From Escherichia coli (lineage in GTDB: Bacteria; Pseudomonadota; Gammaproteobacteria; Enterobacterales; Enterobacteriaceae), in the NCBI RefSeq assembly GCF_003790525.1, contig NZ_CP033635.1: a stretch of DNA of 64,000 nucleotides. One strand, written 5' to 3'. Below the pieces are notes generated by a model, which was given only the letters and a program-made list of their open reading frames with translations, made no database searches and was not told the origin of the DNA. Shown one piece after another: positions 46,846 through 46,967 of the stretch. The position numbers and the translations under genes were made by a program. How positions within the stretch are numbered: position 1 is the stretch's first letter; the number at the start of each line of letters is the position of its first letter.

Positions 46846-46890
46846 AGGGCAAAGCGGAAACGGATAAGACGGGGATAAATGAAGAAGAAA

Positions 46891-46967
46891 TGGCGCGCCC
46901 TGCAGGATTCGAACCTGCGGCCCACGACTTAGAAGGTCGTTGCTCTATCCAACTGAGCTAAGGGCGC
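46891..46967 (-). tRNA. argU: tRNA-Arg (anticodon UCU)
   Basis: Reverse complement reads GCGCCCTTAGCTCAGTTGGATAGAGCAACGACCTTCTAAGTCGTGGGCCGCAGGTTCGAATCCTGCAGGGCGCGCCA, a canonical cloverleaf with a UCU anticodon and a 3' CCA. Confidence 0.9.

Follow-up and report, generated by a model that had tools for sequence, protein, structure and literature searches.

In Escherichia coli K-12 the tRNA gene argU and the regulatory gene envY are held apart by the cryptic prophage DLP12, whereas in the 64,000-nucleotide stretch of E. coli DNA analysed here (the window) they lie 45 bp from each other, which raises the question of whether this is an unoccupied phage attachment site, as a preliminary description had proposed, and if so how it came to be empty. 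The window derives from the chromosome of E. coli SMS-3-5 (NC_010498.1): a 1-kb query spanning the site is 100% identical to that record, window positions 26400-64000 (37.6 kb) match it with 0 mismatches, and the whole corresponds to NC_010498.1 571601-635600, reverse complement. The genome of this strain was reportedly published in 2008. According to its RefSeq annotation the window is ordinary core genome, including ybdL, ent and fep genes, hokE, ybdK, nfsB, pheP, the cus operon, nfrBA, ybcH, envY, a tRNA-Arg gene, fimZ, the sfm fimbrial genes, folD, cysS, purEK and fdrA, and in SMS-3-5 the genes fimZ, argU and envY are contiguous in that order.

The K-12 map given in the preliminary description, with a prophage of roughly 21 kb (intD through appY and ompT, with the partial tRNA copy pauD) between argU and envY, is borne out by the annotation of MG1655, where sfmH, sfmF, fimZ and argU (564723-564799) are followed by DLP12 and then by envY, ybcH and nfrA. 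The MG1655 feature ‘cryptic prophage DLP12’ spans 564755-586056 (21,302 bp), and its content comprises intD, xisD (a pseudogene), exoD, peaD, renD::IS3, emrE, ybcK-ybcO, rusA, quuD, nmpC::IS5, essD/rrrD/rzpD, borD, nohD, tfaD, appY and ompT, with the integrase gene abutting argU. The longest exact string common to the K-12 argU-intD and ompT-envY junctions is 47 bp long (CTTCTAAGTCGTGGGCCGCAGGTTCGAATCCTGCAGGGCGCGCCATT) and consists of the 3′-terminal 45 nt of argU, which run from the anticodon loop to the CCA end, plus 2 nt. The attB, attL and attR sites of K-12 DLP12 at argU are said to have been treated by Lindsey, Mullin and Walker in 1989.

In the window this attL/attR direct repeat, as defined by the longest common substring, is present as a single copy at 46889-46935 on the minus strand. 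There is no second copy of the core in the 64-kb window, where not even a 12-mer of it occurs outside 46880-46980, nor is there one on the SMS-3-5 chromosome at the level of megablast, which returns one place. In a three-way alignment the window tracks K-12 attL as far as the core's end and, from where the core starts, K-12 attR. Gapped blastn aligns window positions 48000-46889 with the K-12 fimZ-argU region at 98.4% identity and positions 46938-46000 with the pauD-envY region at 99.3%, and these two arm alignments share only 50 bp containing the core (46889-46938), such that the breakpoints are the core edges. An ungapped comparison of the left arm had given 241 of 300 identities, a misleading figure produced by a single indel that the gapped alignment accommodates. 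Since the match to K-12 reaches on either side as far as the edge of a core of 47-50 bp and no farther, the pattern is not due to chance. Aligned against the MG1655 argU-intD and pauD-envY junctions, the window thus reads as attL arm, core and attR arm, and is the expected product of a precise removal of DLP12 from K-12: it shares with the K-12 att system the same argU, the same 47-bp core and both bacterial arms, and differs in that the SMS-3-5 site is empty, with one core copy and without intD, pauD, appY or ompT. We conclude, with a probability that we would put at about 0.95, that 46889-46935 is an unoccupied attB for DLP12-type, argU-integrating lambdoid or P22-like phages, situated inside the intact and functional argU of SMS-3-5.

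The genes on either side of this site are well preserved. On the minus strand, argU (46891-46967) encodes tRNA-Arg(UCU), with anticodon TCT, and is intact: it is the sole tRNA gene that ARAGORN finds in the 64-kb window, it scores 72.1 bits with the Rfam tRNA model (RF00005), and it is identical to K-12 argU at 77 of 77 positions, including an encoded CCA end at 46891. Among the other Rfam models, none reached its gathering score in window positions 44000-49000. The bacterial gene on the K-12 attR side is envY (46084-46845, plus strand; open reading frame list and RefSeq annotation), which encodes an AraC-family regulator of 253 amino acids, 252 of them identical to K-12 EnvY, and whose stop codon ends at 46845; the 45-bp distance reported earlier between this stop and the argU CCA is therefore correct by both the open reading frame list and ARAGORN. 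The spacer between these convergent genes (46846-46890, no strand assigned) is, from its alignment with K-12, the bacterial right arm adjoining the core, and matches the K-12 pauD-envY spacer, also 45 bp, at 43 of 45 positions (two SNPs). A terminator scan found no argU terminator in the 45-bp spacer, and the region 3′ of argU is no more stably folded than its shuffled counterparts (z = -0.51). Upstream of argU, a consensus scan picked out a strong sigma-70 promoter-like site on the minus strand (46999-47026; TTGACT-16-TATAAT, 11 of 12 matches), the same in sequence as K-12 across the aligned stretch, which we infer to be the argU promoter. Beyond it, on the K-12 attL side, lies the bacterial gene fimZ (47209-47841, plus strand; RefSeq), the regulator of the sfm fimbrial genes, collinear with K-12 over the left arm described above.

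That the window holds no integrase, phage gene, ompT or second partial argU copy, as had been claimed from the letters alone, is upheld by blastn, 12-mer and tblastn searches and by the RefSeq annotation alike. The DLP12 interior gave no blastn match to the window, and 20 DLP12 proteins gave by tblastn nothing but AraC-domain cross-matches to envY, which come from the AraC-family proteins AppY and YbcM and fall on the C-terminal AraC domain; the RefSeq annotation of the window lists neither an integrase nor a phage gene. We found in the window no IntD-type integrase, pauD repeat, lambdoid genes or appY/ompT, and hence no DLP12 prophage. As to the cross-matches themselves, K-12 AppY is 44% identical over 96 amino acids to the AraC domain of EnvY (window 46534-46821), and in K-12 ompT lies between the two AraC-family genes, appY and envY, which are also separated by attR. 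The G+C content of DLP12 is 43.2%, that of its appY-ompT end 34.7% and that of the window 52.7%, a contrast which is consistent with a foreign origin of the cargo.

We extended the search for cargo genes to the whole chromosome with chimeric queries, in which the 1-kb SMS-3-5 junction was joined to K-12 ompT (in opposite orientation) or to appY, so that places in the record beyond those of the junction would signal the cargo gene. Against NC_010498.1 the junction with ompT gave one megablast place, the same as the junction alone, and three places with sensitive blastn; these three were considered as possible ompT copies and ruled out, because the junction-only control likewise gives three and ompT therefore contributes none of them. 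The junction with appY also gave three places by sensitive blastn, the same as the control. The SMS-3-5 chromosome is thus without an ompT or appY detectable down to approximately 65-70% DNA identity, a threshold below which a very divergent homologue would escape.

The further claim that OmpT and AppY are missing along with the prophage consequently holds for the chromosome, and for OmpT for the chromosome only. Plasmid pSMS35_130 (NC_010488.1, 130 kb) carries at 74276-75229 a full-length gene annotated as ‘omptin family outer membrane protease’, whose product is 73% identical and 88% similar to K-12 OmpT across all 317 residues without gaps, and because it encodes this OmpT paralogue SMS-3-5 is not omptin-free. 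Its immediate neighbours are mig-14 and an SDR oxidoreductase gene, and sitABCD and the genes for colicins V, B and M are close by; it is plasmid-borne in the same way as the ‘episomal’ omptin of ColV/ColBM-type virulence plasmids. Compared with chromosomal ompT, it sits away from the argU locus and outside DLP12 and is, by its sequence, a diverged paralogue. The papers inspected contain no statement specific to ompT in SMS-3-5; the plasmid omptin is relevant wherever ompT serves as a virulence or typing marker.

Across the species, the empty argU site is a common and already documented allele, both the polymorphism and the 47-bp repeat having been published. A 47-bp argU-like DLP12 attR has been described (Ramisetty & Sudhakari 2019; PMC6379469), a survey of 638 Escherichia/Shigella genomes put the share with DLP12 at argU at 74% (PMC6379469), and DLP12 has been termed the most prevalent E. 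coli prophage (PMC10057817). Our counts update this known polymorphism for empty sites, K-12-type attR sites and an ompT-bearing remnant without envY: envY, argU and fimZ are contiguous in 2512 of 5426 complete E. coli genomes (46%), and 2914 of the 5426 (about 54%) are without the contiguous arrangement; a K-12-type attR, with the ompT upstream region, the core and envY, is present in 1592 of the 5426 (29%); and in approximately 1050 genomes (about 19%) the match, at about 88% identity, is confined to the ompT-upstream part plus the core, with divergence beyond it. A 1-kb junction that is 100% identical to the window was seen in no fewer than 12 independent complete assemblies. The argU-envY junction of E. 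coli O157:H7 strain Z1831 is also empty.

The short remnant can be illustrated by the urine isolate 2016C04-116 (NZ_CP131685.1 2005083-2019566), in which the order is folD, argU, a truncated integrase, a tail-fibre-assembly fragment, a methyltransferase, ompT, the core and ybcH, with appY, envY and the whole sfm operon absent from this allele. The argU site and the far-side core are the same as in SMS-3-5, whereas SMS-3-5 keeps envY and the sfm genes and has no remnant at all. The identity of only about 88% between the ompT-upstream segment of the remnant class and that of K-12 suggests either a separate acquisition or a long divergence. We note also that adding ompT to the junction query raised the number of megablast places by 3217 (10411 versus 7194), as against 2914 genomes without a contiguous junction, which means that ompT is not strictly tied to occupancy of the site; by these counts some genomes must carry ompT elsewhere or twice.

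A scan of species representatives for the argU 3′ end, N30-60 and the envY stop yielded one match, which we rejected as a mis-binned E. coli attR contig, this pattern being unable to separate attB from attR because it falls within the core. The contig (JAIJJM010000316.1, 3563 bp, labelled ‘MAG: Collinsella sp.’) contains the 3′ end of E. coli envY, the pauD core and ompT, is 98% identical to K-12 over 1533 bp before diverging, and lacks appY; it is almost certainly a contaminant placed in a Collinsella bin.

The core is also carried by free temperate phages. Approximately 17 E. coli/Salmonella temperate-phage records in GenBank match 47-59 bp of it at 94-100% identity, with E. coli phages PhiR26_1, PhiR29_1/2, PhiR30_1, PhiR49_1, PhiR68_2, 2G7b, ev243, Kati and Turner and Salmonella phages SEN22 and BIS08P22 among the bearers. 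In Salmonella phage epsilon-34, the attP shows a 43-bp identity to argU just downstream of int, and its integrase has the DLP12 enzyme as its closest relative (PMC2629481). Epsilon-34 and the core-bearing phages thus share, over 43-59 bp, an identical or nearly identical version of this 3′ part of argU, and would be expected to use the site in like manner; they differ from the locus studied here in that theirs are phage-side sites (attP), and none of these phages is integrated in the SMS-3-5 locus. Tyrosine integrases are known to target tRNA genes, and it is from such enzymes that the steps of the following mechanism are drawn, our own results being sequence relationships. An IntD- or epsilon-34-type integrase would pair the phage attP, with its roughly 47 bp of the same sequence, with the core at 46889-46935 and would exchange strands conservatively, and the phage would end up inserted between argU and envY. 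In the process an identical phage copy would take the place of the last 45 nt of argU, and the displaced original 3′ part would persist beside envY as the partial copy, which in K-12 is pauD. The argU tRNA would stay intact, because the phage copy that replaces its 3′ 45 nt is identical. As free temperate phages carry the same core, the SMS-3-5 argU site is probably an open landing pad available to them, its competence for recombination being a prediction.

Could the contiguity of argU and envY have a more trivial cause? We found no point in favour of a prophage having been collapsed or mis-joined out during assembly, and the finished state of the SMS-3-5 chromosome, its lack of a second core copy, ompT or appY, the dozen or more independent complete genomes with an identical junction and the 2512 genomes with the contiguous arrangement together exclude a mis-join, leaving it a negligible probability. 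An equally far-fetched proposition is that argU is a tRNA gene neighbouring envY by coincidence, without any link to phage attachment, and that the K-12 insertion is an unrelated rearrangement. Nothing that we found speaks for it: at its two boundaries the K-12 insertion has the argU 3′ end repeated directly and exactly over 47 bp, and its integrase gene adjoins argU; moreover, the core occurs in free phage genomes, and the argU identity of epsilon-34 lies just downstream of its int. The two findings that would have overturned the preliminary description, a mis-join and a K-12 locus without a prophage, are contradicted, the latter by the annotation of DLP12 in MG1655, and its central statement, that this locus is without DLP12 and is an empty attB, rests on two arms that meet at the core.

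An unoccupied attB may have been empty throughout or may have been vacated, and as conservative recombination leaves no scar, sites never occupied and sites precisely vacated give the same DNA. It is conceivable, although we consider it unlikely, that the lineage of SMS-3-5 (phylogroup F) formerly had an occupant at the site and lost it again, whether Int/Xis excised it precisely or the 47-bp repeats recombined homologously, in which case the emptiness of the site would be derived and not ancestral. DLP12-type elements are indeed widespread at argU, both in our set, given its share of non-contiguous genomes, and in the published survey; either route would regenerate exactly the sequence observed; and the plasmid omptin would soften the loss of ompT. 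Against this history stand the absence of any scar, leftover phage base or extra core copy, and of positive evidence in general, and the pseudogene state of xisD in K-12, on account of which decayed elements of this kind would be expected to excise poorly. The remnant class, of about 3 kb, weighs in the same direction: its match to the K-12 ompT-upstream/attR sequence, at about 88%, compares with 98-99% between the chromosomal arms of SMS-3-5 and K-12, a disparity that would follow if an ancestrally empty site had received elements several times independently, and not from one ancient insertion, and that hints at such repeated acquisition at argU. More doubtful still is the fuller scenario in which the phylogroup-F lineage lost a DLP12-type element by precise excision and now draws its omptin function from the pSMS35_130 paralogue; if true, a plasmid copy would have replaced a domesticated prophage gene, and the vacated attB would be open to living argU-integrating phages.

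On the reading that we prefer, of an unoccupied attB within argU, SMS-3-5 and its close relatives are without the chromosomal DLP12 cargo, namely OmpT, AppY, EmrE, RusA, the Bor homologue and the DLP12 lysis genes; the empty site itself is of little import beyond correct annotation. Several labels in the RefSeq annotation of the window can mislead: nfrB is given as ‘nrfB’ (39814-42051), and the sfm-operon genes sfmH, sfmC and sfmA bear the names fimH, fimC and fimA, like type 1 fimbrial genes (48370-49377; 52030-52722; 52941-53483). In the RefSeq annotation of 25153-25542, a ‘hypothetical protein’ pseudogene (25274-25542), frameshifted and interrupted by a stop codon, shares part of its sequence with the hokE toxin gene (25153-25305, minus strand).
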